Origin: Schmidtea polychroa
Lineage: Eukaryota
Length of the DNA: 64,000 bases
Assembly: GCA_044892525.1 (NCBI GenBank)
Contig: CM097885.1
Location: forward strand, 19,532,001-19,596,000
Direction: 5' to 3'
A program made the translations under genes and the position numbers. Of this stretch, positions 3,650-63,528 are shown piece by piece (position 1 is the first letter of the stretch; each line of letters begins with the position of its first letter). Under the pieces are notes generated by a model, which was given only the letters and a program-made list of their open reading frames with translations, did not search any database and was not told the origin of the DNA.

Positions 3650-4370
3650 TGATTATGTACAGAGGTAACATATGTTAGGCTACTGAGACAAATTAAACAA
3701 CATCAACCTGATGTATCCCCATCAACATTTATGACTGATTTTGAATCTACAATGGTTAGTGCAATTCGTCAAGAATTTCCAATGTCTAGACATAGAGGAT
3801 GGCTCTTCCATTTTTCACAAAGTATATTCCGAAAAATTCAATCTGAAGGTATTCAAAGAAGATATGAAACTGATGTGATTTTTGCAATGAAAATGTGTTT
3901 ATTATCTGCTTTAGCCTTTGTTCCAACAGAAGATGTTGTTGAAGCATTTGTGGCTTTAAGTGATGATGGGATGCCTGAAGAATCAAAAGGAGTACTTAAT
4001 TATTTTGCAAATTACTGGATCGAACGCCCTCAAGAATACACAGGGTTTCGAATACCTCGCTTCTCAATCGAAATATGGAACTGCTATGATGGAGTAAGAA
4101 ACCATATTCCTAAAACAAATAACTCGATTGAAGGATTGCACCGTGGATTTGAGGTGCAAATATCTACAACACACCCTAATATCTGGAAGTTTTTCGAAGC
4201 GATTCAGCGTGAGCAAAATATTGCAAATTGGGCAATATGTAAGTGGTCAGTAATCTAATCCTGCACGTAAGAAATATTGGGATTGTGCTGAAAGACATTT
4301 CAGAGTAGTTGTAAATTATGACCGAAATAATATTTTGGAGTTTTTAATAGATGAAGCACACAATATTAAT
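3650..4370 (+). pseudogene. Mutator/MULE transposase C-terminal remnant
   Basis: ORF 3731-4258 has MTDFE, a degenerate CxFH (GWLFHFSQ), LSALAFVP and KTNNSIEGLH motifs of MULE DDE transposases; truncated, with stops. Confidence 0.85.
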
Positions 4371-14692: not shown

Positions 14693-16920
14693 AAGAACTA
14701 TTAATGAAAAGATTTTTAAAATAATTTAAAAATAATTCAGTTTAAAGTGACCATATAAATATATTTTTTGATTTGACAATATTAGAAAAAGAAACTCACA
14801 TATTTACTACCGATTTCAGTTTTGAAAACTATATAAATTTGAAGCATTTTATTTATTTGAAATTGTGTCAAGAAATTATTTTGTTTTGTTTCTACTTCAT
14901 TATTCTTACAATAAATTACACTTTATAAACTCTCTATTAACTTCACTTTGTATGTATGTTTCAATGTTTGTATGAGTCACGTAAATCTTGTGGCGGCAAA
15001 TTAACCTACTTCCCGTGATTTGATCGACCTGAAATTTGGCAGATAGATTAGTCGTCCAGAACAATGCACTCTTTTAAAATTTCAGATCGATCGAAGGTGC
15101 TATAGAATACTTTTTGAAACATTTCAATTTCATTAATATTTTCAAAATTTCTTTCAAAATATTAATAAAGTGGTCCTTTCAAAGTAATTTCTTAAATAGG
15201 TGATTTTTCATAATATTAAATATTTCATAGCATTGAACACATATTGAAATTTTAATTTTGAGAGAATGTAAAATAAAGAGAAAATATTAAAAATTATATT
15301 TTTACGGTTAGTTTTCTATCAGTTAATTACATTTAAAAAAAATTTAAATGATAATTTAAGCCTTTTGCTGCGAATAATATATTTAATACAAATGAAAGGA
15401 TACAGAAACCTTTTTTAAAACTAATATAAAAAATTAATTTTAATTTTAAAACTAAAAATTGTTTTTATACAAAATATTTAACAAACAAACATCATCCCAA
15501 ATATTAAATATACAAGTTAATTTATTATTTGGGATGATGTTGTTTGTTAAATATTTGTACAAGATTGTTAACAATTTTGTGCGTTTTATTAATATAATTT
15601 TTATATCAAAACGGATCAAAATCACTTGAAAAAGGCAGTGCCGAAAATTTGTGAATATCAAAATGAGAATCGATATATTTACTGATTTCAAGCTTTTTAA
15701 TAAATTACATTTTTATATGATTAAATAAAATGTTTTTTTAAATTTTTATAAAAATATCTTTTTTGATACAGTTTGATTACGATTATTAGTGGTTAATTTG
15801 TTTGAATATTATTATTTTCATTTAGTTGTTATTAATACAACTATTAGTCTGAAGAAGACTGTTAAACGTTGTAATTATATAGAAATGTTATATTTTAATA
15901 TACTTTGTTGGTGATTTTCTATTTATATATACATTGATCTCACCAAAGCTTGCATATGAATCAGTAAATATATCGATGTTTAAAAAGGCAGTGCCGAAAA
16001 TTCGTAATTATCAAAAACATTGAAATATATATATGTTCTATTATTATGTTCAAGAAAATATCCCAAAACCCCTTTCAAATCATAATAAAAATTCATGCTA
16101 ATGACTAAAAATATATAAATATTTTATACTTCGATTTATGCTATATTTTTTGTTTTTATACGGATAAAAGAATATTAAGTGAATGTTTTATTAATATCCA
16201 CCAAAGCAAAGATTTTAATGGGAAAATGTTCCCAATTACTTAGTTCGGAAATCGAATATATTTTGCCCTCTTGAAATTCAGTAACATATTTGTCATCAGT
16301 TAATGGGAAAAAGATATTAAATTCAACAAGGCATAGAATAGAGAAGATTATACCAGTTCATTTGACTGTATGAAATTAATCATATCCCCAATAACGGTTG
16401 ACAGATAACACGCGGGAAAAAACAAAGTTGAACAATGAATTCCCTTTACTACAAAATGAATTTACAATAGATTTGAGTTTGTAATTGAATTCTTTTCGCC
16501 AATTACTTCAAGCTATTACTTTTTTCTGAACAATTTAAAGACCGTGAAACGAAATTATGAAGAAAAGTAATTTTTATTTTCGTTTTTAACAAAATTCATT
16601 TTTTTAGATTCATCCAATCGGAATTGATTTCTCCCCCCCCCCCTAATAAAACGGATAAATTCAATTTTGATCATGTAATAAAAACTATCATTTCCTCGAA
16701 CACAGTTGTTTGAAATATTTTTGTAGAATTTATAAAAATATTATTTGTTTTAATTAATGTCAAGAAAATAATTTAGATATTTTTTTAGTAAAAAAATTCA
16801 TTATCAGCAGCAGAGGATGCTAAGGTTTTTCATGATCAAAGGTTTATGGTAAAAAATGAGATCGAGGAATAGATTATTCGAAAAAATATGCTATTTTTAT
16901 TTATACAAAAATTTTTATAT

Positions 16921-19948: not shown

Positions 19949-20686
19949 TGAATAAGTCCAATAACAATTATCAAAATTTTATTTCCCGCCTCTACAGGGC
20001 CGCGTGGATCAGTTTTGAATAATACCAGTTTGTCCATTTCAATGTCATGTCCAATGTCAGATTTTACTCGAGCTGCTTCCATTTGTGCACGATAAACTTG
20101 CGATCGACAATCAGGGATCATACCAATCATAACACCTCCAGTACTTTCAGTAATATTAAACGATCTCGTAGCTGAACTCGTCTCAATCATTTTATCGGGA
20201 ACTTTTCCTTGGAAAACAGTATAAATGAGATCGCCTTTCACAAAGTTAATATTTTGAAAAGATGTAAGACAGAATTTCTGATCACAACCTACATCACATC
20301 GCAAATTCATTTCGACCGCCATTCTTTGAATTTCATTCATCATAATCTAACCGATTTCAATTCCAAATACCTTCCAAAATCGCCGTTTAAACCACAATCA
20401 ATTTAAAAACAACTCCAGAAATCACAACAAAATTAAATCCAGTTTCTACAACAATTAATTTTAAACTACAAACCAAAATTTAGAACAATTCACCACCAAA
20501 TCAATGATTTCTACAAAAACTAAATCAAAATTATACTTACAAAATACCAAACCTACCAACTCTTCGCGTCTGTGTGCGCACACCAACCAGAATCGGTCTA
20601 ACCAGACCGCGCACACAGACGCGATAGAAAAAAGGCATGCAACGAACTGCCAGTCAGAGGCAATCCCCCTCTGACTGGTCGAAACA
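19949..20686 (-). repeat. 3' LTR of the BEL element (738 bp)
   Basis: Near-identical to 23681-24573 apart from two missing 78-bp units, one substitution and one 1-bp indel that I could see. Confidence 0.95.
19999..20268 (-). pseudogene. Proteasome alpha1 (PSMA6-like) fragment within the 3' LTR
   Basis: QGKVPDKMIETSSATRSFNITESTGGVMIGMIPDCRSQVYRAQMEAA...FKTDPRG aligns by eye to PSMA6 [47 protein letters not shown]...YKCDPAG. Confidence 0.85.
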
Positions 20687-20698
20687 TTTCCCCCCTCC
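20687..20698 (-). other. Polypurine tract
   Basis: GGAGGGGGGAAA on the minus strand immediately before the 3' LTR. Confidence 0.9.
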
Positions 20699-20955
20699 TT
20701 GATCCCTTCTAGCGGATCAACCACCCATTTACTTTAGGGGAACCTTTCTTTTTGCATATCTCCAATACCTCTCACACACCCATCTTTCTATTGTATAGGC
20801 CGCCGCACCACGCACCTTTTTCTCCTCCCACCATCGCCATACTCGGCCAAGCCCCTGTCACTGTTCATTCTGCTTAGGTTCAATATCTCCATTCTTCTTC
20901 CTTCATTCTTCGCCAATTCAATAGTCCCCACTTTTCCCTGTTGCATTTCATTTAA

Positions 20956-22155
20956 TTAAGGGGAACCAGGTGAATAGTCTTCAATGATATCATCTAAAGC
21001 AGACGTTGGTTGAGTGAATGTATTTTGTTCAGAATCTTTAGCTGTGTCGGATGTATGACAATTAACAATATCGACTCTAAGATCACTGTCATTGCTCTCA
21101 GAATCTGGCATAATTCGATCAGTTTCTAAATGATTTTCTGAGGAAGCAGAATCCGCTTGAATATTAACTACGTCTTCCATGTTTTGAAAATTATCTACTA
21201 CCAAAGAATTCGGTCTTTCGATAACATTAATGTCGACAACATCTGTGCCTAAATAACTATTATGATTTTCATTCTTGTCTGACACATCTACTTCAGTTTC
21301 ATCATATTTACTTTCAAAATTTTCTTCTTAATTGTGAGTTTTGACAATATTTTCTGATTCATCTGCTGTAACTTGGTCTCCTTTATCAAAATCTTTGTCT
21401 AATAGTTCAGTATTATTTTTTACAAATTCAGAATAATTATTCTCGTTCTCATTGACTCGATTTTGCTCTATTTCATCTTGATTTATAATATCGTTAGATT
21501 GTAAATTATCCCATTCATTGCTTTCACTATCTCCATCTTCGCTAGCATTTTTGTTTTCATGTGTTTCATCATTTTCATCACATTCTTTAATATAATCCAT
21601 TTCTTCAGAATTATCTACATCATGAATAATCATTTCTCCGTCATTTTCATCTTTATTATTTTCGATATCTGAATCCTTTTTTGAATCGGAAGGATTTATT
21701 ACATCTATGGAATCTATTTCGTTATTCTCAAGGAAATTTTGTGGATTACCGTCATCTTGAGTAATATGCTTTAATTCATCACAATCCTTTATTTTGTCAT
21801 AATTGTTAAATGGGTTTTGATTAAAATTAGATTCGTCAGTTCCTCCAAAATGGAATATTTGCCCATCTAAATGACTCTGAGCTCCTTGCTCCTCATTAGA
21901 TGTCTTACTAATGTCGAGTTTTGTGTCCTCAATTCCCCGCAATGCATGTAACTCGTCATTTAACATTTTCGTTACTGCAAAATAACTCCGAGCCAAATGC
22001 GAACCTCTTGGAGCTTGATTTCTTGCAATTGGTTTTCTCTCCATGAAGTTTGTGAACTTCTTCAATTTCCCCACATCCTTCCTACTCTCTGGAATTCTCT
22101 CCCCAAACAATATATTCAAGGCTTTTCGATGCCTATCGGCTTCTTGTTGATCCAA
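20956..22155 (-). pseudogene. Gag tail running into a D/E/N-rich coding segment that replaces pol
   Basis: ORFs 21328-22155 and 20956-21285 are in the same frame, separated by one TAA; no protease, RT or RNase H motifs. Confidence 0.7.
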
Positions 22156-23027
22156 TCGGCTAGAGTTTGTACATTTCCTTCTCTCCCCGAATCACAATGG
22201 CGTGACCACTGAATCAGCATGGTCTCTGGCAACTTCTTCAGCAGTTGATGATACAACATTCTGTTGTTCAACTCGCCTTCCCTCTTCTGTTCCTTGAAAT
22301 TCAGGATGAGGTTTCCCAGCAGCTCTTCAAACCGCTCTAGGTCCTCCAGTACGTTGAGCCTCACTGGAAAAAACCTCTGCACCGCGTCCAGCATCATTGA
22401 ATAGGATCTTTCTGGTCCCCCATACCTCTCATCCAGTAATTTCATCGCCGCCTCGAAAGCCTGCGAGCCATATCCAATATAGGCAATCAATTGCAACGGC
22501 TTCCCTTCCAAGTACTGTCTCAGGTACAAGTACTTTCTCTCACTCGGCTCATCTGTGTCCTCGATGCAGGCTCTCACAATTGCCCTCCATCCAGGATACT
22601 CCATTACCTTTCCATTAAATATCGGCAGCTGTAAGGGTTTCAATCCCATTATGAACTTCGGTTTTTCATTGGGCTCTTCATTCCTAAATGATTTCTCTGG
22701 GACCTTCCGCGACTCTACTCTAAAACTTTCTTCCTTCTGCGTGAGGACCAGATCACCGATTCTGCTAAAATCCGCTTCTATTCGTCTCAGATCTGCCTCA
22801 ATTTCCTTCGCTTCTTTCTCCCGTCCTAACTCCAGAGCATTATTCTTCAGCTTCTCAAATTCGTTCATGACTTCCTCATACTTGTCTTCGTATGCCTCCA
22901 TTCTCCTTTGTTCTTCCCCATGGTCCGATCCATCTCCTAAGGCCCGGTTACGTAGACGCCCTAACGAAATCTTCCACCCGGTTCGTCTTTTGTAACCGGC
23001 CTCGAACTCAGCATCTGATACTGGACT
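22116..23027 (-). pseudogene. gag: BEL/Pao Gag (DUF1759-like), frameshifted near 22145
   Basis: Coiled-coil N-terminus, [27 protein letters not shown] and LLDERYG motifs typical of BEL/Pao Gag. Confidence 0.88.
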
Positions 23028-23492
<465 letters not shown>

Positions 23493-23662
23493 CTAATAGG
23501 GTTAGGGAGGGCAGGCCTTAGGGGAAATGTTTCAAACAAATCAATACATGTCAATACATATAATATGATAAAAATACAATACATATTACATATATATATA
23601 ATACAATACAAATAAAAGACAAACAATATATGTAACATACCTTGTTCCGGCTGGCTAGCCGG

Positions 23663-23680
23663 AACCACGCTCTGCTACCA
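23663..23680 (-). other. Primer-binding site, complementary to initiator tRNA-Met 3' end
   Basis: TGGTAGCAGAGCGTGGTT directly after the 5' LTR; metazoan tRNAiMet ends ...CUCUGCUACCA. Confidence 0.85.
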
Positions 23681-24573
23681 TGAATAAGTCCAATAACAAT
23701 TATCAAAATTTTATTTCCCGCCTCTACAGGGCCGCGTGGATCAGTTTTGAATAATACCAGTTTGTCCATTTCAATGTCATGTCCAATGTCAGATTTTACT
23801 CGAGCTGCTTCCATTTGTGCACGATAAACTTGCGATCGACAATCAGGGATCTTGTCCATTCCAATGTCAGATTTTACTCGAGCTGCTTCCATTTGTGCAC
23901 GATAAACTTGCGATCGACAATCAGGGATCTTGTCCATTCCAATGTCAGATTTTAATCGAGCTGCTTCCATTTGTGCAAGATAAACTTGAGATCGACAATC
24001 AGGGATCATACCAATCATAACACCTCCAGTACTTTCAGTAATATTAAACGATCTCGTAGCTGAACTCGTCTCAATCATTTTATCGGGAACTTTTCCTTGG
24101 AAACCAGTATAAATGAGATCGCCTTTCACAAAGTTAATATTTTGAAAAGATGTAAGACAGAATTTCTGATCACAACCTACATCACATCGCAAATTCATTT
24201 CGACCGCCATTCTTTGAATTTCATTCATCATAATCTAACCGATTTCAATTCCAAATACCTTCCAAAATCGCCGTTTAAACCACAATCAATTTAAAAACAA
24301 CTCCAGAAATCACAACAAAATTAAATCCAGTTTCTACAACAATTAATTTTAAACTACAAACCAAAATTTAGAACAATTCACCACCAAATCAATGATTTCT
24401 ACAAAAACTAAATCAAAATTATACTTACAAAATACCAAACCTACCAACTCTTCGCGTCTGTGTGCGCACACCAACCAGAATCGGTCTAACCAGACCGCGC
24501 ACACAGACGCGATAGAAAAAAGGCATGCAACGAACTGCCAGTCAGAGGCAATCCCCCCTGACTGGTCGAAACA
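23681..24573 (-). repeat. 5' LTR of the BEL element (893 bp) with PSMA6-like ORF and a 3x78-bp repeat
   Basis: ORF 23551-24231 starts in the LTR, contains three IPDCRSQVYxAQMEAARxKSDIG units and reads through the PBS. Confidence 0.95.
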
Positions 24574-31788: not shown

Positions 31789-32141
31789 TTTATTAATAAT
31801 TAATATTTTATAATTATTTCAAAACAGTACAAATTTGATATTTGCAAAATAACTAGCGAGATGCCTGAACCTAGAGACATTATTAGTTGTAAAAGAAAGA
31901 TATATTTTCTGCATTGAAATTTTCCATTTAATTCTGATACATATCACTCAGTACATCGTTTTCAGATAAACTAATACTGACAAATGTCTACTATTAGAGG
32001 CTGGAAATTTCTAATTATTGGCAATATTGGTCGTAATTTCAATTTCTACAGAATAATTAATATTGAAAGTATTCATAATATTGCAAAAATGCAGAATGTT
32101 TTATGAAAATTCTCTCGAAATCTAATATTTAAATACCCATT

Positions 32142-34205
32142 ATGGCGTGTTCCAAAAAAATGAAGTTTGATATTCCCCAATTTCAGTCTTCTTGGACAAC
32201 AGATTACGGGTTTATTTTAAAAAATGATCGTACTATTTGCGCCTTATGTTTGGAAACTATTGTAACCAGAACGTCAAGTGTAAAGCGTCACTTTGAAACA
32301 AAACACAAAGGATCCTTCAAGTGTGAGACAGAAAAAAATGAATCTATTAAAAATGATGTGGCTCGATATGAGAAGCAAACAAACGTTTTTGTAAACATGA
32401 TCGGTAGAAAAAATCAAGCAACTGAAGCTAGCTACAAAATCTCACAGTGTATTGCAAATTTCGGAAAGCCATTTACAGACGGTGATTATATTAAAGAGAT
32501 TTTCCTCAAGTTCTCTGAAGTGCTGTTTGATGATCTTCCCAATAAAAACATAATTTTTTCAAGGATAAAAGAAATGCCTACTTCTGCTAGGACGGTTGAG
32601 AGAATATAAAAGAACAGCACACTGATGCGTTAAGGAATGCTTGCGTCCTGAGTATGTCACTTGATGAGAGTGTTGATATAAACGGGATACCACGTTTGGC
32701 AATTGTAACTAGACACGGTGATACTGAAATGCGTGAGGAATTATGTTGTCTCGAATCTATGCATGGTAATACAACGGGAAAAGATATTTTAAAAACGTTT
32801 ATCGATTATTTTGAAGAAAGAGGAATTGACATCAAGAAGATATTTGCTGTTACGACAGATGGTGCTCCTGCCATGTTAGGTAGGCTAAATGGATTCGTCA
32901 ATTTACTTGAAGAAATAATTGGCTATCCCATTTTAAAGTTTCAGTGCATTATTCACCAAGAGAATATTTGTGCAAAGATTTCAAAACCCGATCTTAACAA
33001 GGTTATGTCAACCGTATCTAAAATTGTAAATTTTCTTGTGGCACTCTCTTCTCTAAAAATAAGACAGTTCGAAGCTTTACTTCAAGAGATGGAGAGTGCA
33101 TATCATCATATACCCCTTCACTGTAACGTTAGATGGCTAAGTTGCGGTAAAGATCTGGTAAGGCTTGTTGGATGCTTCGACTCAATCAAAGTCTTTTTGG
33201 AAGAAAAATCTGAAAGATATCCCGAACTTGAAAACACACAGTGGCTTATAAAACTTATGTTTTTAACTGACCTCACAGCTCACCTCAGCGAGTTTAATTT
33301 ACGTCTGCAAGGTGTTGGACAAACGGTTATGGAGCTTTATGAGATATGGAAAGCATTTGTTTCCAAAATCGAGATCTATAATGAGGATATTAAAACAGGG
33401 AATCTTCGTTACTTCAAACATCTGAAACATTTCATTGAAAACTGTAAAGATCCAGATGTAACTCTTTGTGTAACTGATGAGTATATGGATGCACTAAAAT
33501 TAGAATTTTTGAATCGATTCAAAGATTTTAAGTCATTTGGCCCAATGTTTTCTTTTTTAATAAAACCAGATAATATTGAGAACTTCAATTTGCTTGTCTT
33601 TGAATGGATGGCCATTGAAGATTTTGAGATGCAATTAATCGATTTTAAAGTATCTTCATTATGGGTAAATAAATTTGCAGAGCTACGAAAAAGTTTGGAA
33701 AATTCTACCAACAATTATGAGCAATCAAATTCAATCCTAAATTGTTGGTCATCTCTCCCCGAAAAGTTTGACTGTCTCAAGAAAGTTGCATTTGCAATGC
33801 TTTCAGCCATTGGTTCGACTTATATATGTGAACAAATATTTTCGCATATGAAGTTCATTATTAATCCCTATTGAAGTCGGCTTACTACAGATCACTTCGA
33901 AGCATGTGTCCGAATTAAAGTCTCAAAATACGTTCCTGATATCCCAAAGCTAAGCAAAGCCAAGCAAGGCCAAGGATCACACTAGACTAGATGATTAGAA
34001 AATGATTTGTTGATATGAAATATTTGTATATTAAAATATAAATATTATAATTTCTTTTTACATTAAATTTGAATATTCCAACAAGAAGTGTTTTTGTACC
34101 TATCATTTAAAATTATGTAGTTGTCGCTTCTCGGCACGCGAAGAATAAAAAAATAAGAAAATAATGAAAAATGGCACTCCAGTACTAAAAGGTTGCCGAC
34201 CCCTG
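32142..34205 (+). mobile_element. hAT (Buster/SPIN, GTF2IRD2/EPM2AIP1-like) transposon, disrupted transposase plus right TIR
   Basis: BED-like CxxC...HFETKH, LDES, TTDGAP, CIIHQE, VRWLS and STYICEQ motifs; a break at ~32609 and a stop at 33874; right end ggttgccgacccctg at 34205; left TIR not found. Confidence 0.92.
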
Positions 34206-34684: not shown

Positions 34685-35071
34685 TTAAATAGTCTATTTA
34701 AATAAAGTGAAGAAATAAAATAGTTTGTAAATTAAATATTTAAATTTTATTTTACTATACTAAGAAAATAAAGTCCTTATCTCAATGATGTAAAATATTT
34801 CCAAATTAATTAGATGGATTCAATGTAATATTTAGTGATTAGAAATGTTCCTTATTATTGTTTAATTATATATTAATAGATTTAATAAAAAATTCTCAAA
34901 TATTTTAAACAAGAAATACAAATATTGAGTTTCGCTCAATTATCAAATATCCAATGAAAAATCACTCCACAAATGATCCTTTTTAAAAGTAATTAATTAC
35001 AAAAAATAATAAATTAAAATTATAATTTATAATAGAAAATCGCCAACTAAGTATATTAAAATATATCCCAC

Positions 35072-35097
35072 CTGATGATGACAGGAAAACTGTGAAA
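35072..35097 (+). ncRNA. Hammerhead-ribozyme-like core of a Penelope pseudo-LTR (possibly degenerate)
   Basis: CTGATGA-tg-ACAG-gaaaa-CTGT-GAAA just upstream of a Penelope-like ORF; stems I and III not established. Confidence 0.55.
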
Positions 35098-35149
35098 ATC
35101 GTGAAAAGAATGTTTGATTGGCGTTATCTTATAATTAAATCATTGCCCT

Positions 35150-36110
35150 GTATGTTTAACTATTTATTCAAAAATCATATTTCTATTGTTCCAATATTCA
35201 AAAGATTATTGAAGACTCATAATGCACTTAGAAGAAAAAAACTAGACATTTGTTTTCTTGAGACTTGTTTAGAAGAAAAGATGATTCCTTCGTTCATTTT
35301 TAAAATGAAACTTAGTGATTGTCTTTCAAGTAAAGATGTGCAAATAATACATAAAAGAACGTTAAGAAGAATGTTGGAATCAGAGAAGATAAGGAGAACA
35401 TCCTTGGATAAAAAACTATTAAATATTGGATTTACTTCAAATAACAATCAAATAACAAATCAGTTTTGTTTGCAGGTATGTGTTGAAGGGTGTATTAAAA
35501 ATTCAATTTCTCAGTTAAAATCAAAAGAGAATGCTCATATTAATAAATTAAAAAATTTGAGAAAATTATTTGGGATCTCTAAATTTGGTGTAGAGAATAC
35601 ATTATTAAACATGAGTAAATTTGTTTTGTCTGAAGAGGAGGATCGTATATTGAAATTTGGTCCCAATCATACCATTAACCCTTTAACAACTAAAGCCGTT
35701 TGCAGAGGTCATCATAAAAACCCCTTTCGATTCAAATCAAAACATTTTCGCGTTCCAAACAGTAAGACCGATTTTCGTCTGTAAAACCCCCCACCACAAT
35801 TTGCAGGTTTGAACACGATCAAACACATGGTTTGTTTGTAATGGTCAGTTTGGTTGACGACAAAACACCTCGTAATTCTATTTCACTGGTTTAATGGTTA
35901 AGAAAAGAATTTATGAAACAAAATTATGTGCGAAGATTGAAAGTTTCTACTTTCATATACTTAGATCGATGAAGGATATTAATACTAATAATGTGAAGAG
36001 TGTGTTGAGTTCGAGTACGATGGAGTATATTGATAAAAATAAAAAGCAGAATACTAAAGATTTTACTGTATTAAAAAATTTAGCTAAAAAAGACCTAAAA
36101 TATCTAAAAA
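35150..36110 (+). pseudogene. Penelope-like element ORF N-terminus (RT absent)
   Basis: FLETCLEEKMIPSF, NMSKFVLSEEEDRILKFGPNH and LKNLAKKDL match the pre-RT region of Penelope-like ORFs. Confidence 0.75.
35679..35897. mobile_element. TTAA-specific insertion in the Penelope ORF
   Basis: Flanked by TTAA with imperfect TIRs; removal rejoins ...GPNHTI-KKRIYETK... in frame. Confidence 0.75.
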
Positions 36111-37134: not shown

Positions 37135-38609
37135 CAGCGCTTCTCAACCGTTTTTGGCTTATATTAGAAAAAAAATTAAAATATTAATACTCGCGTATTT
37201 GTTATTATTTTAAACTTGTTCGAACACTAAATAAATAGCAAATAATGTTTCAAGGAGTATGCTCAGAATGTGTATTGATGAAAAGTAAAACATTTATTAT
37301 AGTTACATATATTTTAATAAAAAACGAAATGAATATACACTATAATATTTTTTACATTAAAATTTTTCATTATTTTTAACTTAACTTATTACATTTAGTG
37401 AGATCCTTGAGCTTGCTTTGAGGCGCATAGTTTTTTGAAGTCAAGTTCGATTGATGCAAGGTTATAATCTTAAATCTGGAGCTGCATTCAGCTTATTACG
37501 GCATTTGTTTTTAATAAATAGATATGAAGAGAATGCTCTTTCCACCAGTACTGTACTTGTAAATGTTAACAAAACGTTAAGCGCTTTGGCAGAAAGCAAT
37601 TCATATTCGGTGCTGATATGTGACCAAAAGTTAATAAAATATTTTCTTTTAAATTCGACTTTCAAAGTAGAGTCATTTGAAATTACAATTAAGTTCTCTT
37701 TTTCAGTGATTGATAATTTAGTTATTCGAAAGTATCCGTCATTGAAAGGATTTGAAATCCAATTGTTTCCTACATCAGGTTTGTGAAAATACTTCTCGAA
37801 ATTTGATTTTAGCTCTTTTAAGTGTTCAGATATGTTGCTCAATTCTCTGGAGAGGCAAAGTTTATTCTCTGATAGGAAATTGTGCAAAGTTTCAAATACC
37901 TCCGGTTGACCGTTTTCAATACATGTTCTCCTAAAATTATTTTTTTAATCATTGATTCAATTTTATCCGAGACATTGAATATCGATTTGGAGTTATTTTA
38001 AAGTGCTAAATTTAGATTGTTTGTACGTAGGAAAATGTCTGATAAATACGCAAGCGTCTGAAGTCAATTACAGTCGTGAAACTTGGAAGCAAGTTGAAAA
38101 GGATGTTTTTCGAAGAAAGCCTGTACTTCATGTTTAAGCTCGAACAATCGGGTAAGGACCTTGCCTCGAGATTGCCACCTTACCTCTGTATGATATAGCA
38201 GAATAGAATGAACACTATCAAAATCTACACAGAGCTTTAAAAATTCTCGAGTTGGTTGAACTTGACTTATAAAATTAACCACTTTCGTAGCGTCGTCAAG
38301 AACAAGCTTCATTTGCACTGGAAGGTGCTTAGATGCTAAACTTTGCCTGTGGATCAACAGTGACTTCAACTTATTTTGGGAGCTATCTTTGTAACATTGG
38401 GTCCATTTGAATTCTAACACAACCCGTTGTAATGTGATGATGCAATTCCGAGTGGCACACATAACTTTGAACAATATTTTGTGTATAAATAGTGAACGTT
38501 AAAACAAATTTTTGTCAAATATTTGCCACCGCTTTGAAACTAAATTGAGGTAGGAGTTACATTTTTAACATCCGTCATTACTAATATTTTTTCGCGTTGG
38601 GAATCGCTG
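37135..38609 (-). mobile_element. hAT Buster-type (ZBED5/SCAND3-like) deleted element
   Basis: TIRs cagcgcttctcaac / gttgggaatcgctg, TSD cgctatag/tgctatag; HRQSLA, HTEVRWQSRG and STVLVERAFS motifs. Confidence 0.9.
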
Positions 38610-52925: not shown

Positions 52926-54818
52926 ATTGACAATATTGCTTGATTTAAGACGTTTATTAATATCTTGATTCTTTTAAGTTTGCTAAAACTACGTTTACAC
53001 GAAGCAAATGTTATTGGGAGGGTTAATAATAAATAATAAGGGTACTCGATAATAAATATTGGCCTTGTTTTATATATAAAAAATTATTGTGTTTTCGAAG
53101 GAACTTTTGATGTTTCCACATCACAAATTATTCCATTCAAACAAATATGTAAAATTAATAACACATTTAGAAAATCAACAAAATATGAAGTTGTTAATAA
53201 GTGTTTACGCTCAAAAATAAATATTAATTTTGTGAATCCATTAAAAATTCTTTTAAAAATGCGTTACGAAACCACTTAAAAATTACAGTTAAAATTTATT
53301 ATTACACTAAAAAATTAAATTAAAAACAATTAAAAAAATATTATCTCTACATTAACGCGATTGACAGACCCTTATTTATTGTCATCTATGCAATTACTTA
53401 TGGCGCTTCTTGTGACAAGTATGTTAACTTTAGCATTAACATAGATTATATTAAATTAATCAGCATTCATATCTGAACAATATTTATACTAAATATAATA
53501 AAATCATGAAATATTATAAACAAACGGACGGAAATTCAATGATTAATTTATTATAATTCAATCAATAATTAATAAATTAAATTAAATTAGGTGAACTAGA
53601 TTAAATCGATGAAATAAATGATAAAATTGAATGTTTTTAGGGTAATTAAAAATTAAAATTTATTTTGATTTTATAATTTCGATAATAAATAATTTTTTTC
53701 ATTTATTTACTTTATGCAGAGACGAAATAAATAAAAATATTTAACATTTATTGAATGTTTTTCATTTTGCTTTCCTAAGATTTATAAGATTAGATCAATA
53801 AATTCATATCATACACAAATTTTGATTATTAGTTAATGATAGTCTTATTAATTAAATATAAATAAATCTTTTATATTTTAAATTAATTAAGCAGAATTCA
53901 ACCTACTTAGACTTGTTTGCTTTATAAAGGTTTCGGTAGCAAAAATCTTACGACTACTCTAGCTCCATGTGGTTTCTCATTTAACAACTTAGATTCAAAA
54001 CTCTTGAAACTCAATTTATAAAAAAAATTTGAAATCCTCTCATTCAAAGACCACACAAAGGTAGAATTCGTTACAAGCATTATTTCTATTTACAGATTAT
54101 ACAATTAGGCAAATCTTCCTAAATGAGAATGTCAAAATTTGACAGTTTATGTTTTTTTATTTCAATGGTTCTCTTTTTTATCATTATTGAACACTTTCTA
54201 TGCACAACGCGCTTGCCTTCAATCAAAATGGAAATCTATATCTATATTTATCAAATATGTTGTATACACCTAATTCCGAAATTGAACATTGTCTATAGTA
54301 TACGTTGGTGTGCACACCAGTTGAGGTGACTCACAATTTATGTGACAATGATTACTTAACTTCATTTTTTCAATTTTTAAAAATCGTTTTCAGGTATGTT
54401 TTTGAATTTTAAGTAACTTTTAAGACTTAAATTTTGATTTTATATAATTATGAGATCATTATTGAAGCTTTTAAATATTACTTTTAGTCAGCATTTATAA
54501 TATAAATTATTTTTAATTAAATTTCAGGTGTTTTTTAGGAATTTTATGAAATTAATTGAAATTATTTCGATAAAATGTAAGTCAAATATATTTTTAACTA
54601 TAAACAAATAAAGTAATCACCGAAGATATTAATTTTTTTAATACAAATGGGAAAGAATAAAATGGATAAAATAGTTTTTTAAATTTAAACCGAATTTTGT
54701 CTGTAGTTCTGTGAAAATATTAATTCCTTTTTAAGTTAACGTTTCGTATTTTAATGAATAAATCTTACATTGCCAAATCTTCACCTTGGCAAAAAGGTAG
54801 CGTTTTCACTGAAATATC

Positions 54819-55957
54819 TGTAGTGAGCCGTTACACGGCCTTAACAATATCTATATACTTATTATACTATATTATATTATATTATATTATATATAAATGC
54901 GCGGTCACCAACGAATAAGGACCAAACAGAACACAAGTATAGTCAATCAAAAGTCGTGCGATCAGCTAATACTTCTACTTATCAATCAGGCTCTATTAAT
55001 CAATCTCAGACGAGTAAAGCAAATTCGATGCCATGTTATCATTATCAAGATAAACTGTATTCGGCTCCCAATAGTTTTAGTGTTGGCTCTCATAGACCAA
55101 CACCCTCATCCATTACAATTCGCGAAAGACGGAACAAATCCTAACAATAATATGAACCCGAAAAGATCTTTTTATCAAACCACCACACGTCTTTACAAAT
55201 TCTGATCAAGGTGATAATGCAAAAAAGGATCAGAACGGCAAAGGATATACATTTCCTCAAATATTGTATGCGAATGAGAATGGTCAAAATGGTTCATGGA
55301 CAAATCGGCAGGCTGTAAAATCTTTAGAAATAATCGGACTATATGAAATTATTATTTTTAGTTAACATTTTGTAAATGAGAAATGCCTGTTGAATATGTT
55401 TATCTGGTCTGATTATATTTTCATTTTTTATATAGTTTCTATAATATATTTTTGTTTTACTTAAATAAGTGAAAATGGTAATTTAAATAAAAATTGTGTA
55501 AATCGAATTTATTATATAAATTGTCTGACTTTAAATTGAATTTAATTACTTTTCTTCTCAAATGATTTTAAAATTATTTAGATTACTGATATTGTTAAAT
55601 TTCATAACCTCGAACAAGGAGGAAGTATGTAAGGATATTAATTCATCTGATGATAGGTATTCACAAATCGTGTTATTGAATCACCTTCCATTTGGTCTTG
55701 TTAATAAAACTAATATCATACAAAAGATAATCATGCTAGATGAGTGGGACGAATGTATTAAATATTGTTGTGACTACAAACAATGTGACGCGGTTTTGTT
55801 CAATACTACCCATTGTAAAATAATTCATTGCGAAAATCCATCATTATGTCAGCCAGAAAAAAAGAAAACTGAAGAATTATTTTGCGTTTTCTCGAATAAT
55901 GGTCAAAGAAATGATTCTATTGCCAAATCACCAGAAAGGACTACGCCAACCACAACA
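54819..55957 (+). repeat. 5' LTR (1139 bp)
   Basis: Matches 62085-63207 except for about three substitutions and a 16-bp indel. Confidence 0.97.
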
Positions 55958-58549
55958 TTGGTGTCAGAAGTGCCAGAACAATGTTCAAGATTTGAACATT
56001 TAGAAACTTATTTAGCGGCTAATATCATTGCTAAATCCAGATTACAGGAAATACAATCTATGTTAGTTTCTCATAAACGAACAGTGGAATTACGTCAAAA
56101 TATGTTCCATATGCTTTCCAAAATATTTACTGAATTAAAACTTTCATCAAAATTTAATCCTATATCCCATGATATTGATAGGCTGATAGATCATTTGATA
56201 ATTGCTCATTCCTGTTGTTTGTCATCAAATCGAGAAGAGTATATCAAATTAATTCAGACAATTCCAGATCGTGATTCTTTGGATCCCGTAGTCGTTCTAT
56301 GTGATTCCATTTAGAGCCCTGCAAATATCACAGATAATAATCATATTCCAAATGGTCAATTTCAAATTTCTGACCCGATAAATAAATCGTCTTTCAAATT
56401 TATCAGTAAAAGTATTCAATTACAATCTGAATCATCGGATACTAAATCCGAATTTTCCCTATTCAGTGCTTTCAATAGCTCAGCTGGTAATGATATTACT
56501 GAATTCCACAGTACACTGAATTCCACATCTCCCCTGTTACGGCTTTCAGATCAGAAATCATTTATGAACAGTTTGAATTCAGTTGGTTCGTCGAATTCTC
56601 TGCTGGAAAGTTTCTGCCAGTTAAATTCTCAAAACCACGCCGCAATCAAGAATAACAACAATAATAATCAGTCATACCATCACAACATCAATCAACAGGC
56701 AAACAACAACGGTGTGCTTAACTACGGTCAGTATCAGGATCGAAACGAAATGGATATAAATCGCATATTTGGCTCGGAGAAACTGAATTCACATTACGAT
56801 CAGAAATATAAAGATACAGCCGATATAGATTTTGATTCGATTAATGTTTCCCGGCAAGCATTGGCTGAGATGATTGCCGTTGAAAATCGTAAAAAAATGA
56901 CTCCGATCAATAATTATATACCAAATAACAAATTGCTAACGAGTGAGGTCTTATACACAGCCCCACAACGCATCATGCTTCGACCAAATCCAAATGAATT
57001 CTTAATGCAACAGAATAATGATTTTTTCACATTAAACTCTCGTGCACCGGGACAGCCATTTATTCACGATAATAAACCATCTCCCAGCGAATCGAGACTC
57101 AATCAAGCAATGCCCGTGTCAGCACCGCCAGGTACCTTAGATCGATTACCTCTAAATTATATTATTATATTATTAAATTATACTATATTATTATTGATTT
57201 ATATTATTATTGATATCATATATAAAATTATAATAAATTATTTAAATAAGCATCAGCCCACACGAGAGGGTAGCGCCGCACCGGGGCCCAAAAAGTTCCA
57301 AATATTACTAGAAAACCCTGGAACAAATAAGACACAAACCGTTTCAGTTGACACAGACACTACAATTAGAGGTCTTTCTAAAAATTACAGCATATTGACT
57401 AATCACAAATGCCGTTTTCTCTTGTCGTATAACGGCAACATTATTTCCGACAGTCGTACCTTGGGCGACTATGGAGTGACACCATACAGCGTCATTCATT
57501 GTTTGTTGCCATTTTTTGGCGGTTCCTCCGATTCGGAGAATGACTCAGGCAGCAACCCCAAACAGGCAAAACATAAACGTAGGTCCAACAACCAGCGATC
57601 AACGTACTTATGTCAATATTTTTTGGATGAGAATAACTCTCCACTTACTTGGCTGATAGCTACCGAACTAGCACTCGAGGGAATCGAGGTAACCAGTTCA
57701 CGAGACAAATACTGTCGCATCTTGCCGTTGATTCCGCCGACGATATTATGTAAACTTTCGTCCGTGATCCTTCGCACTTCGCCTACTAGCGTAAAAAACC
57801 CATATGAAGAATTGCGTACGGCAATCCTCGATATTTTTAAGGAACCTACAGCTGCCGTCTTCACTAAATACTTTAAGATGCAAACTTTGGGCAGCAGGAA
57901 ACCATCACAGTTCTTGCAACACGCCATGGCGGAACTAACGCAAATACATCCGGAGGCTGCGGCGGATCAAAAACTCTTGAGGCAATTTTTTCTGTCCGCT
58001 TTACCGCCACACGCACAACAAATTTTAGCGCTTTCGTCAACAGCAGACGTGGTAGAGCTAGCAAAGATGGCCGACAAGATTAACGAAGTCGTGCCACTTG
58101 GTCCGCAACCAACTTGCTCTGTGCAGTTAAGTAGCAGCACTAACCCCGAAATTTTACCTTCTTCTTCTTCTTCTTTGAAACCTTCGACCGAAGAAGCCTT
58201 ACTTTGCGCTATTACAGGCCTCACTAAACGCATCAGCGAGCTTGAGAATAGCATGTCCACCAGGCGGACAAATGACGACAGGCAATATGCCCAAAAATCA
58301 CACTTTGTGCAAAATACTCGTCAACGTTCACCTTCCCCTGCAACCAGGAACCTGTGCCGTTTCCATTTTAAGTTTCGTAACAAGGCACGGTTCTGCCATC
58401 TAGGTTGCAATTGGCGAGATAAAGCACCATCCTGTCAGATACTTGACAAGTGCATATACCACGACAGGTTCGGAGATAAAGCCTTAAAATGCTTCGAAGG
58501 CTGCTCCAATTACACAAAACCTAAAGCAAACAATCAAAAAAACTTATAA
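55562..58549 (+). CDS. gag: Extended Gag polyprotein frame: signal peptide-MANEC-linker-[TAG]-N/Q-rich region-hydrophobic segment-UBL-Gag
   Basis: ORFs 55562-56314 and 56564-58549 are in the same frame and 56315-56563 is stop-free, so the only interruption is TAG at 56312-56314. Gag motifs NPYEELR, LGSRKPSQFL and two CHCC knuckles. Confidence 0.8.
55959..55972 (+). other. Primer-binding site (tRNA-Leu type)
   Basis: TGGTGTCAGAAGTG one base after the 5' LTR. Confidence 0.85.
57296..57523 (+). other. Ubiquitin-like domain, 76 aa, ending FFGG
   Basis: FQILLE...KTQTVSVDTDTTI...LSYNGNIISDSRTLGDYGVTPYSVIHCLLPFFGG, compared with ubiquitin [34 protein letters not shown]. Confidence 0.9.
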
Positions 58550-58582
58550 TGCCACCACTTCTAGCGGCAGAGGTGGGAGGCA
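58537..58582 (+). promoter_or_regulatory. -1 programmed ribosomal frameshift signal (gag to pol)
   Basis: A AAA AAC heptamer at 58537-58543, then a hairpin tgcc-a-ccacttct...agaggtgg-ga-ggca starting 6 nt downstream; pol is in the -1 frame. Confidence 0.8.
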
Positions 58583-61500
58583 AAATTTCATCAAAATCAG
58601 ATTTATTTTTAATAGAAGCAGAGTCAAACGCTTTTAATATATTGTCGTCTCCTTCCAACAGACTAAAATTCCTTGTCGACACTGGTTCCAGCTTGTCGAT
58701 CTTACCTAAAGAGTACCTTCCAGACCTCAACACTGTCGATATTTCTTTGAAGGCCGCAAACGGTAGTGTTGTTGAGACTTTAGGTTCAAAGACAATTGCT
58801 TTCTCGTTGCCATTTCTGTCCGACCAATTATTTGAGTGGAAATTTTATATAGCAGAGGTTATTATCCCCATATTAGGATCTGATTTTTTAAGCGCTAACG
58901 AACTACTCGTAGATTGCCATGGACGCACTTTAAGGATAAATAACCAATTAAACTGCAGCACTATTCCCTCAAACATCTTTGAAGATCCACAGCGGATAGG
59001 AACGGACGATATAAATACTACTCCGTCGAAAACGGTTATAACAATCGAACACCCAAAAATAGCCTTAGATATTATTAATAGGTGTTTTAACACGCCAATA
59101 AGTGACGTTTCGAAGCCGCTTTACTGCCACGTGATCGACACAACTTCATCTTTACCAGTTAGATGCAAAATTAGACCACTGTCGAATGAAAAACTCGAAT
59201 TTGTACGTTCCGAGTTCACTAACCTCTTACATGAGGGTACCATTCGGAGATCTAAATCTCCATGGTCATCGCCATTGCACCTGGTCCCAAAAAAAGATGG
59301 CACTTTCCGTCCGTGTGGCAACTATCGAAACCTTAATGCTATTACGGTACATGATTCCTATAGCATGCCGCTTGTTAGTGATATCCTTCACCGTCTTTCA
59401 AAGGCAAAGATTTTCTCCACAATCGACCTCGTGAAGGCGTACCATCAGATACCCGTGCGAGAGTCTGACATAGAAAAAACAGCCGTAATAACTCCGATCG
59501 GACTTTTCGAGTACGTGCATATGCCTATTTGGCCTTCGTAATTCTGCACAGACCTTTCAAAGGTATATTGATCAAGTCTTAATGGACCTGCCTTTCGCAG
59601 TTCCTTACATAGACGACATTTTAATCGGATCACCTGATTTAGAGACGCATATAACCCATCTGACAAGAACTTTAACAGCACTTCAGCAATACAACCTTAA
59701 GGTAAACGTTGATAAGTGTACCTTCTTCCAACACGAGACTCGTTTTCTGGGACATTTAATTTCCGGAGATGGAATCCGACCTCCTCCGGATAGACTAGAT
59801 ACCATAGCCAAATTCCCACTTCCAAAAACAGTTTCACAACTGAGAAGTTTTTTGGGAACGATAAACTATTGTCATCGTTTTATTCCAGGGGTTTCTGACA
59901 TTTTGTCACCTCTTTCAGGTCTTGTTTCAAAACCAAAAAAGTCTTTAGTGTCATGGAGCGATACCACACTCAGTGCATTTGAAAACGCTAAGTCGGCACT
60001 TTCGAAAATTCAAACACTCCATTTTCCCAATGCTGATTTACCTTGGAGTCGGACCACTGATGCATCAAACGTTGCTATTGGTGCAGTATTACACCAATTA
60101 CATAATGACATTTCTGAACTCTTAGAGTTTTTCTCAAAGAAACTTTCTTCCGCACAACGGAAATATTCGGCTTTCGACCGAGAACTCTTAGGCATATATC
60201 TGTCAATCAAACATTTCAAGCACTTGCTTGAAGGTCGTCCTTTTGTCATCTACACTGACCACAAACCGCTAACTTATCTTTTTGGAATGAAAGACCCATC
60301 TCCACGACAACAGAGGCAAATCAGTTATATTTCAGAATTTTCTTGCGAAATACGCCACATTGCCGGCAAAGAAAACGTTATTGCAGACTGTCTTTCCCGC
60401 AGTACCAACGCTATATTGCACGATCCGATTTTTCCAGTACAGTGCCTCCGCGACAATCCACCTTCGGCAAAAGATCTAGCTGCTTTTGGCGATAAGCTTG
60501 AAATCGTGGACGGAGTACACTTTGACTCGTCTTTATCAGGTGTTTTAAGACCGATTTTGCACGATTCCTTACGGAAATTAGCTTTCCACTCCATTCACGA
60601 CTTACATCATCCAGGTTCGTCGGCTACCTTCAACCTATTGCATTCACATGTGGTTTGGCCAGCAATGAGGCACTATATTAAATTGTGGGTGAGTCAGTGC
60701 ATCGGTTGTCAACAACACAAGATCACTAGACACACTAAGCCACAGATGATTCACTATCCGACCGGAAATAGGTTCGAAATTCTTCACATCGACCTGGTCG
60801 GCCCCTTGCCTTCTGATCGTGGTTTTTCTTACTTATTAACCATGATTGACCGGAAAACGCGTTGGTTTGAGGTTATACCTCTAAAAAGCATTTCTGCTGA
60901 AATTGTAGCAAATTCAATTTTGCAACATTGGATTTCTAGATACGGTGTTCCAAAATCAATAATCACAGACAGGGGATCTCAGTTTGAATCCCAGCTATTT
61001 CAACAACTAACTGAAAAGCTCGGTATACAACACCTCCGTTCAACTGCTTACCATCCTCAGACAAACGGCATGATCGAAAGATTTCACCGTACTTTGAAGA
61101 CTTCTCTTGGAATACTTTCATCGAGACTTAATTGGACTAAAGCTTTACCTTTTGTCCTTCTTGGTTGGCGTAACACACCCTCCAGGACTACCGGAACTAC
61201 ACCGGCACAGTTACTTTTCGGTTCTTCAACATCGTTACCTAACGAATTAGTTGATTTCGATAACGCTCCTACCTTTGAGGAATTAGATATGGCTAGAGAT
61301 CATTTTCTTTCGATCGATAGCAACCCACAGTTTTCGTATGCTTCCTCATATACACCGTACGTCCCAAAGTCCTTCAAGGACGCAACTCACGTTTATCTTC
61401 GTAATATTACGGATTCAGGTCTCAAACCGAGATATTCGGGGCCTTACAAATTGATCGACATTAAGGATAACAATGCTCACATCGTTATTAACGGTGTTAC

Positions 61501-61915
61501 CCAAAATATAAATTTGTGCCGACTTAAACCTGCTTTCATGATTTCTGATGACGTGGACGAAAACAAACTTCACTCTGATTTAGAGAAAGTCTCAGTCGAA
61601 CCCATTCCAACTACGTCGAACGAAAACCCTTCAGTAGAACCTGCCACAGACTCAAACGAAATCGCGCGTACCTTGATCACAAACTACCAACGCGATATAA
61701 AGTTAGCTACAGAGAATACACATCCAGCAACAACAAATCCACTAAATCTTCGCTCAATTGTTTCGAAACCCGACAAGCAGCAAACCGCGAAAAATGTGAA
61801 AAATAGTGATAAGATTTGGGTGCGCCAAATTGGTGAAGACATTTCCAAACCTCCAAGACTTGCCAGAGTCTATTCCAATGAAAATTTGACACATCTGATG
61901 CTGAAATTCACTTAA
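58549..61915 (+). pseudogene. pol: Pol (protease, RT, RNase H, integrase) with a 1-bp insertion at ~59527
   Basis: LVDTGS, IDLVKAYHQI, MP(a)FGLRN, YIDD, TDAS, HHCC, HIDLVGP, TDRGSQF, MIERFH and GPY motifs. Confidence 0.95.
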
Positions 61916-62084
61916 CTTTATTCCATGTGATCAATTAATTCATCAATCGCCGATTTCCTTTTTAGACACTATCCACCTTTGATAAATTGTCACTACTCTT
62001 CGACTTACATCTTGTTTCTAGTAGATCTTTCATCAATCTCTATTCTTGAGTCCCTGTGCGCTCCGCGACTTCCCGTGGGGCTGA

Positions 62085-63207
62085 TGTAGTGAGCCGTTAC
62101 ACGGCCTTAACAATATCTATATACCTATTATACTATATTATATTATATTATATTATATATAAATGCGCGGTCACCAACGAATAAGGACCAAACAGAACAC
62201 AAGTATAGTCAATCAAAAGTCGTGCGATCAGCTAATACTTCTACTTATCAATCAGGCTCTATTAATCAATCTCAGACGAGTAAAGCAAATTCGATGCCAT
62301 GTTATCATTATCAAGATAAACTGTATTCGGCTCCCAATAGTTTTAGTGTTGGCTCTCATAGACCAACACCCTCATCCATTACAATTCGCGAAAGACGGAA
62401 CAAATCCTAACAATAATATGAACCCGAAAAGATCTTTTTATCAAACCACCACACGTCTTTACAAATTCTGATCAAGGTGATAATGCAAAAAAGGATCAGA
62501 ACGGCAAAGGATATACATTTCCTCAAATATTGTATGCGAATGAGAATGGTCAAAATGGTTCATGGACAAATCGGCAGGCTGTAAAATCTTTAGAAATAAT
62601 CGGACTATATGAAATTATTATTTTTAGTTAACATTTTGTAAATGAGAAATGCCTGTTGAATATGTTTACCTGGTCTGATTATATTTTCATTTTTTATATA
62701 GTTTCTATAATATATTTTTGTTTTACTTAAATAAGTGAAAATGGTAATTTAAATAAAAATTGTGTAAATCGAATTTATTATATAAATTGTCTGACTTTAA
62801 ATTGAATTTAATTGATTTTAAAATTATTTAAATTACTGATATTGTTAAATTTCATAACCTCGAACAAGGAGGAAGTATGTAAGGATATTAATTCATCTGA
62901 TGATAGGTATTCACAAATCGTGTTATTGAATCACCTTCCATTTGGTCTTGTTAATAAAACTAATATCATACAAAAGATAATCATGCTAGATGAGTGGGAC
63001 GAATGTATTAAATATTGTTGTGACTACAAACAATGTGACGCGGTTTTGTTCAATACTACCCATTGTAAAATAATTCATTGCGAAAATCCATCATTATGTC
63101 AGCCAGAAAAAAAGAAAACTGAAGAATTATTTTGCGTTTTCTCGAATAATGGTCAAAGAAATGATTCTATTGCCAAATCACCAGAAAGGACTACGCCAAC
63201 CACAACA
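62085..63207 (+). repeat. 3' LTR (1123 bp)
   Basis: Preceded by gtggggctga (weak PPT), followed by TSD ATATC. Confidence 0.97.
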
Positions 63208-63528
63208 ATATCTGAAACTTTAAAGAAATAGAGAATGGAATAAGATTGGAATAATATTGTTAAATTCCACAAGAAGACAATCATATGTTGTTTGAGTCAT
63301 ATTAGGTAATAAGCATTACACTGCTGCTGGATTGATTCCGTGTTCTCTAGTCTTTTCCAATATTCATAGTTGATATACGTAGTTCGTTCAATAATGCCTG
63401 GGACTGACTAAGGAAGAAATATGATAAACCAATCAAACCGATTTGTTTTAGCACCTACATATATGTTTGTTTATATGCATAAATTAAATAATCTGATGGA
63501 CTGACGTACGTACTCCATTTTTTGTCAA

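Follow-up and report, generated by a model that had tools for sequence, protein, structure and literature searches.

The glyco-Gag of MLV is a virus-encoded and conserved type II protein that is made beside the normal Gag. In the ubiquitin insertions of pestivirus polyproteins and in the ubiquitin-ribosomal protein fusions, the unit ending in Gly-Gly (GG) serves as a cut signal that sets the next N-terminus. In LTR-mediated retroposition, as set out by Tan et al. (2016, PMC5131818), pieces of spliced host mRNA are found in LTR elements with the host frame kept, multi-gene chimeras and further rounds of retroposition occur, some junctions show microhomology, and host sequence stands in for some of the internal ORF sequence, the product acting as a non-autonomous element. 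Burro/GYPSM1 (Arkhipova and Yushenova 2019, PMC6431247) is a planarian Gypsy-like element of more than 30 kb, in which host-derived domains, including a ubiquitin/SUMO-like one, share one polyprotein frame with an N-terminal Gag, whole regulatory domains and an env-like region. Partial spliced leaders (SL) adjoin mobile elements of flatworms and have been explained by trans-splicing of the element RNA and its subsequent reverse transcription (PMC12582326).

The retrotransposon family considered here was found in a 64,000-nucleotide stretch of the Schmidtea polychroa genome (assembly GCA_044892525.1, contig CM097885.1, positions 19,532,001 to 19,596,000), which is referred to as the window and whose plus-strand coordinates are used unless the minus strand is named. 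As in MLV glyco-Gag, a start that lies upstream and in frame could extend Gag by a glycosylated part routed to the membrane, but in this family the extension is a recent host capture, carried by a minority of the copies and under no clear selection. In contrast to the pestivirus and ribosomal ubiquitin fusions, the ubiquitin unit is an old, diverged and clade-wide feature of a retrotransposon Gag, and its cleavage is predicted. The host frame, spliced host pieces, multi-gene chimeras, occasional junctional microhomology and further rounds described for LTR-mediated retroposition all recur here; unlike the elements of Tan et al. (PMC5131818), members of this family keep gag and pol, hold the cassette inside both LTRs and at the head of the Gag frame, have swapped it repeatedly at one nucleotide, often with its end at an exon donor, and carry a conserved ubiquitin-GG before Gag. 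What sets the family apart from that process is where the host piece is captured, a joint that is fixed and acceptor-like, and the ubiquitin-GG in front of Gag. Burro (PMC6431247) is likewise planarian and Gypsy-like with host domains in one frame, whereas the present element has about 8.4 kb, passengers before Gag that are mostly domain fragments, and no env ORF. A leader-only SL sequence accompanies the LTR elements as in the flatworm report (PMC12582326), but its position is constant, 8 nt into the LTR, and it occurs in many subfamilies and ranges from near-perfect to degenerate. Literature searches found neither ubiquitin-Gag fusions nor LTR exon trapping in such elements, nor any combination of LTR retrotransposons with a MANEC domain; Repbase and key subscription papers were outside the search, so the family or an SL-bearing LTR may be described there.

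The whole element (54819-63207) is a young Gypsy LTR retrotransposon flanked by a 5-nt target-site duplication (54814-54818, identical to the five letters at 63208-63212). Its LTRs are direct repeats with TG...CA ends, the 5' LTR (54819-55957, 1139 nt) being of the MANEC type, hereafter type A. The 3' LTR (62085-63207, 1123 nt) differs from it by three substitutions and one 16-nt gap; the 16 missing nucleotides include part of the cassette ATG, which is absent there. The primer-binding site (PBS), assigned by position, lies directly 3' of the 5' LTR (55958-55972), and a PBS-like site occurs at the expected position in 66 copies and also in metagenome relatives. No tRNA genes were found within the 64-kb window, and an Rfam search of 54700-57400 returned nothing noteworthy. 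Gag (57524-58549), assigned with Pfam and a structure model, comprises DUF7041, a helical capsid-like region and a Cys/His C-terminus, and is followed by pol (58549-61915) with protease, RT, RNase H and integrase, whose frame is broken near 59520-59580 in the window copy. By its LTR ends, target duplication and pol domain order the element is assigned to Ty3/Gypsy. Neither the ORF list nor Pfam gave an env ORF downstream of pol. The ORF of interest lies in a Gypsy LTR, as a sequence-only reading of the window had it.

This ORF of 250 aa (55562-56314) reads through a signal-peptide-like start, a MANEC-type domain, the LTR end, the PBS and a helical host-like piece. It had been described as a signal peptide and a MANEC/KIAA0319-type domain in frame with Gag, and much of that description is borne out: the N-terminus from the ATG at 55562 is hydrophobic (Kyte-Doolittle 2.38 over 11 residues), the eight cysteines are present (Cys 23, 65, 69, 70, 75, 85, 90 and 96) along with four N-glycosylation sequons, and the frame runs across the LTR end and PBS. 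The domain assignment stands in part, the Pfam KIAA0319_N profile scoring 31.6 bits (cut-off 27) but MANEC 15.2 bits, below its cut-off of 25.5. Continuity with Gag likewise stands as far as the LTR end and PBS are crossed, but the window copy has a stop at 56312-56314, about 1.2 kb ahead of the ubiquitin and Gag domains. Readthrough of this stop was rejected because it is private to the window copy, being absent from the other copies read. The supposed Thr-rich tail is merely the final 44 nt of the LTR, common to most LTR types. A single-sequence structure model of the MANEC part was poor (pLDDT 49); the top structural match of this model was the HAI-1 MANEC region (Z 5.2, rmsd 3.7 over 89 residues), and the other best rows were PAN domains. 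Foldseek gave no match to the same model under E 0.001, a PDB sequence search with the MANEC part gave nothing relevant and a homologue search with the 250-aa ORF found nothing.

The host donor of this cassette, proposed by the sequence-only reading as something to be sought, was identified in the 781-Mb, AT-rich genome. A protein search gave 25 matches, namely 21 LTR copies, three second pieces of frameshifted copies and one LTR-free locus (L070, G000:C4:69361077-69361542). Window positions 55491-55913 correspond to the spliced 5' end of this gene, comprising 5' UTR, exon 1 and exon 2; a 47-nt GT-AG intron of the donor is missing from the LTR copy after 55601, and the match terminates precisely at the host exon end. 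Exons downstream in the locus encode EGF-like and K319L-like PKD (3.3e-10) sequence, and later an EGF-like and a hydrophobic exon, the exon links being deduced; by these domains the donor is assigned to the KIAA0319-like membrane protein genes. The idea of a MANEC-type domain taken from the host and placed in front of Gag is right; the donor itself, the other cassettes, the mosaic leader and the ubiquitin domain had escaped the sequence-only reading. Contigs from three runs, which are only guessed to be RNA, show the host letters but not the intron and depart from the window at 55914, as expected of the host mRNA; all being contigs, they give no readable start, end or level, and regions without contig cover carry no meaning. 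One 872-nt contig of run X1, matching window 55387-55914, passes from type-B-like LTR letters into the MANEC cassette with host letters and then into other sequence, and can be read as chimeric RNA, as an older allele of type A or as a path collapsed in assembly. Two other type-A copies are rearranged, L033 (G000:C1:26385500-26395499) having a truncated interior and an inverted second LTR, and L032 about 2.3 kb of foreign DNA in pol.

The same LTR slot is occupied by other host pieces elsewhere in the genome. The exact pattern of LTR end plus PBS occurs at 66 places, and 67 LTR-PBS stretches were examined, a set that takes in three near-matches as well as some duplicates of a single insertion but leaves out two tandem duplicates. 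Their cassettes fall into types A (MANEC, 6 stretches), B (10), C (7), D (2), E (27), F (14) and G (1); a further type, H, is represented by L335. The interiors of the 20 long copies are 97-99% identical to that of the window. In 57 of the 67 stretches an ATG-started frame passes through the LTR end in the Gag frame, and in the remaining 10 the cassette has stops, frameshifts or deletions; the two non-Gag frames are shut within at most 14 codons past the LTR in all seven type representatives. Donors were found for type B (L286, two introns of which are lost in the cassette; we take it to be TAB1/PP2C-like), type D/E (L257, an isochorismatase), type F (L259, one intron lost, 15 kb upstream of GH85 exons) and type G (L297, a DEAD-box gene, presumably DDX6-like), and candidates exist for type C (L339-L341). 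For all five cassettes with a known donor (A, B, D/E, F, G) the host frame is the Gag frame. A homologue search with cassette B found nothing. The long frame (ORF1) is open for at least 860 codons past the LTR in 29 of the 67 stretches and to the end of the DNA read in three more. By these comparisons the MANEC cassette is one of at least seven exchangeable host pieces heading one reading frame.

Some further copies are unusual in other respects. In L042 and L043 the 5' LTR part, upstream of the cassette slot, holds the 3' end of a lipin gene with its stop and 3' UTR (Pfam LNS2 2.4e-51), which from its content is taken to be a captured 3' end of an mRNA. In L037 the 5' LTR contains an A23 tract that was considered as a poly(A) junction; this reading was dropped, the 3' LTR of that copy being without the tract. 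Copies L019-L023 and L038 on contig C309 form a head-to-tail tandem array of a short-LTR variant with shared LTRs.

Between the LTR and Gag, the leader of ORF1 is itself a mosaic of host pieces. Host gene L210 (ARM/WWE) is matched without a difference over 23 nt (55974-55996); there follow a helical segment without a clear match (55997-56300), for which an Atlas search gave weak rows only, then pieces of the GW-rich gene L206 (56301-56497, 90.9% over 197 nt) and of L209 (56509-57110, 93.6% over 626 columns), and a second L210 piece (57101-57157, 89.5% over 57 nt). The L206, L209 and L210 pieces were traced from contig loose ends and keep the host frame; we take these genes to be GW182-like, CNOT4-like and TRIP12-like, respectively, the last with only a weak WWE match in Pfam. 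An AT-rich stretch (57141-57250), stop-free in the ORF1 frame only, reads as hydrophobic and possibly membrane-spanning (Kyte-Doolittle 2.59 over 19 residues); its interpretation as an intron was dropped, as no contig joint spans it. A run X1 contig skips 55 nt with GT..AG ends in the GW182-like piece (56412-56466), its short side having only 20 letters. An older relative, L268, has a different host mix in one 615-codon frame, presumably with a glutaredoxin-like head and a 7TM-like piece, and in several aligned relatives, known as gene predictions, the leader holds host domains of histone H2A, 5'-nucleotidase, CNOT1 and Rrp44. Several captures come from RNA-decay or silencing genes (the leader donors and P0095), CNOT1 and Rrp44 by Pfam and, on our assumption, the GW182-, CNOT4- and DDX6-like pieces; this bias may merely reflect abundant stem-cell mRNAs, the pieces drifting neutrally.

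Selection was examined on variants shared among 58 copies, nine duplicates having been dropped. Nonsynonymous and synonymous variants number 22/5, 16/4, 18/9 and 9/2 in the leader segments (dN/dS 1.21, 1.04, 0.51 and 1.30), 9/10 in the ubiquitin-like domain (dN/dS 0.27, p 0.005) and 10/31 in Gag (dN/dS 0.09, p 7e-13). No stop in the leader is shared among the 58 copies. Among 53 copies, counted with four older ones also dropped, the frame is preserved by four of seven leader indel events that are shared, and all three events present in at least 19 of the 53 belong to these four; the other three are frameshifts carried by 2-3 copies each, and 4 of 11 private leader indels are divisible by 3. 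From these patterns the leader looks translated but free in sequence.

The leader ends in a ubiquitin-like domain that terminates in Gly-Gly directly before Gag (57290-57523, Pfam ubiquitin 4.6e-8). Its model (pLDDT 78) matches ubiquitin/ISG15 with an rmsd of 1-1.6 A over about 75 residues at about 27% identity, and the terminal GG is invariant in 24 of 24 aligned relatives of 22-37% identity, these being the window's own domain and 23 hand-picked from the 150 matches listed. On the grounds of fold, position, GG conservation and analogy to ubiquitin fusions, cleavage after the GG by a host or element protease is predicted to free Gag. Past the hydrophobic stretch, most copies offer no ATG for Gag. 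In the metagenome, scanned with a narrow alignment that covers one branch of the relatives, seven of 12 loci carry the PBS; in four of these seven the frame opens upstream of the PBS and reaches Gag, in two the leader is broken, and one locus is cut. In a BEL/Pao-type element elsewhere in the window (19949-24234, minus strand), too, Gag (DUF1759) is immediately preceded by a ubiquitin domain with a terminal GG, and the repeat of that element contains a proteasome-subunit fragment, which is the same design in a second LTR superfamily.

At the other end of the LTR, 8 nt inside its start, lies a 31-nt degenerate copy of the host spliced-leader exon (54827-54857), with 26 of 31 letters equal to the leader of seven SL-RNA-like genes (L236-L242). 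These genes, several in inverted pairs, have a leader that ends in ATG and is followed by GT, three predicted hairpins and a U-rich site, features that agree with those of flatworm SL genes (PMC12582326). The other 21 of the 28 SL pattern hits (L224-L251) are mostly a perfect or drifted leader just behind an LTR-like start, with varied sequence downstream. A TATA-like tract follows at 54890-54899, and the LTR part at 54900-55340 resembles decayed coding sequence, of which 54941-55114 is matched by a contig and by L211 before they diverge; judged by this resemblance, it may be an older capture.

The junctions of the cassettes bear on how they were acquired. The upstream sequences of seven types (A, long B, C, long D, F, G and H) join at one nucleotide, 44 nt before the LTR end, a joint recorded in 69 hits from two pattern searches, with type A lying outside those patterns. 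In types A, long B and F the cassette stops at the very end of a host exon, with GT next in the donor and the codon split each time behind its first base (phase 1), and the 3'-junction microhomology is none or one base; in type A, the contigs with host letters match the LTR for just one base past the junction. AG directly precedes the joint in four long-D LTRs, and the donor of long D is split into two exons. L298 equals type G without 132 nt, a stretch that begins with GT and ends at the joint, where the donor, presumably DDX6-like, reads AG, and the loss is intron-like in its ends. Taken together, the stops at exon ends, the common joint and the GT/AG loss in L298 suggest that the joint likely acts as a splice acceptor and the final 44 nt (55914-55957) as a 3' acceptor exon. 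The alternative, that all cassettes arose by RT template switching at microhomologies as in the model of Tan et al. 2016, with a hot spot 44 nt before the LTR end and no splicing, draws on the types D/E and G, whose 3' junctions lie inside exons at 7-nt microhomologies, and on the switch site that recurs near an exon-exon junction in that work (PMC5131818). The type G donor has neither an exon end nor an intron at the junction, and splicing was by these joints not the sole route. In this assembly, the donor introns that follow the exons captured by types A and F were found to contain no family LTR or remnant, which also favours switching; under splicing, a donor-side insertion, if any, would be gone or somatic, or trans-splicing would have occurred instead. 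Template switching alone nevertheless seems unlikely, as it leaves three captures ending exactly at exon ends that are unmarked in spliced mRNA, the single further base shared in type A and the intron ends of the L298 loss. The 5' junctions of A, B and D/E lie just past an A-rich, poly(A)-signal-like LTR tract, as would be expected if the copied host head jumped to the end of the element RNA.

The two remaining alternatives concern what the cassette is for. According to the sequence-only reading, by analogy with glyco-Gag, type A would encode a selected surface or secreted accessory protein, of which the signal peptide, ectodomain, glycosylated stalk and anchor would remain after Gag is cut and aid spread or defence evasion. 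An entire MANEC-type domain with its own signal peptide, the hydrophobic stretch upstream of the ubiquitin, the HAI-1 match of the low-confidence model, and the retention of all eight cysteines in 18 and of the ATG in 20 of the 21 type-A LTRs (three of which have one-base indels) speak for it. Against the 117 codons of the donor, 11 differences are common to 20 or 21 of the 21 LTRs; these fixed, unpolarised differences, seven nonsynonymous and four synonymous, give a dN/dS of about 0.4 that favours the accessory protein and with which weak constraint is still compatible, but it does not depart significantly from neutrality (p 0.13). Among the 21 LTRs the variants are 14 nonsynonymous and two synonymous, and in copies so young retained cysteines are expected anyway. 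Pieces of unrelated cytosolic proteins fill the slot in 61 of the 67 stretches, type A is in the minority, with 21 LTRs where type B has 63 LTR hits, and ORF1 is open for at least 860 codons in none of its six stretches. These represent five insertions that have an interior and differ in their break positions, none being open from the cassette ATG to the Gag end, so that type A may move in trans. A purpose-built surface protein is thus not supported and appears very improbable, while a membrane-anchored MANEC by-product is possible, given the hydrophobic stretch before the ubiquitin. It could instead be held that the cassette frame is untranslated, Gag arising from an internal start such as the in-frame Met at 57110, by entry via the AT-rich stretch or from a shorter RNA, with the open leader left over from recent in-frame captures. 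That Met could start ubiquitin-Gag without any cassette, which counts against a cassette start; a transcription start at the TATA-like tract would put 14 ATGs before 55562, the main gap in the cassette-start model; the leader is broken in two of the seven PBS-bearing metagenome loci; and a deleted type-B LTR that lacks an in-frame ATG is found on copies whose ORF1 is open, although this LTR comes from one insertion site and its duplicates, as their shared target duplication indicates. A capture would be in frame by chance about one time in three, and yet all five with known donors are; with the lack of shared stops and the in-frame common indels over the 1.3-kb leader, this makes an untranslated cassette quite unlikely.

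The MANEC frame is the spliced 5' end of a host gene, lodged in the LTR of a Gypsy family in which the Gag frame starts within the LTR; in our judgement it is probably an exchangeable passenger that gives the start codon and is predicted to be cut off at the ubiquitin GG. In the proposed course of events, an LTR with AG before its last 44 nt, situated in or beside a host gene or acting in trans, would be spliced to a host exon donor, giving an RNA of host 5' exons, LTR end, PBS and interior. Reverse transcription of the host head and a jump to the end of the element RNA at a short A/T-rich match would place the cassette in both LTRs. Only in-frame heads would then spread, as Gag mostly lacks its own ATG after the hydrophobic stretch, and the cut after GG would make the passenger sequence irrelevant. 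In the MANEC type the signal peptide would lead the leader into the ER, where the hydrophobic stretch would stop transfer and leave ubiquitin-Gag in the cytosol. More tentatively, and with less than even confidence, the arrangement may be a built-in exon trap, in which the splice acceptor, situated 44 nt ahead of the LTR end, recruits host 5' exons, the SL copy offers a ready match to every trans-spliced host mRNA, the cleavable ubiquitin keeps passengers harmless, the start codon and 5' identity are renewed from host genes with the RNA possibly disguised, and the MANEC type is an accidental complete type-I membrane protein.

The window holds other features as well. An intron-less frame of 441 codons on the minus strand (13400-14725) reads like an amine-type G-protein-coupled receptor, and remnants of other transposons, presumably MULE-like, hAT-like and retroelement-like, lie at 3653-4258, 32133-33874, 35026-35784 and 37462-37944.

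The design suggests that a retroelement can sample host coding sequence without losing Gag, the frame being selected, the residues free and the GG border conserved, and that splice-based capture into the LTR itself may operate beside the template-switch route; with dozens of young copies and known donors, the route of capture is testable. The case also cautions that a host domain in a retroelement ORF is not necessarily an accessory gene, even when it is complete and has a signal peptide. LTRs of this kind will mislead the mapping of RNA-seq reads to the donor genes. If the exon-trap reading is true, it would represent a step by which an env-less element could move toward a surface protein.
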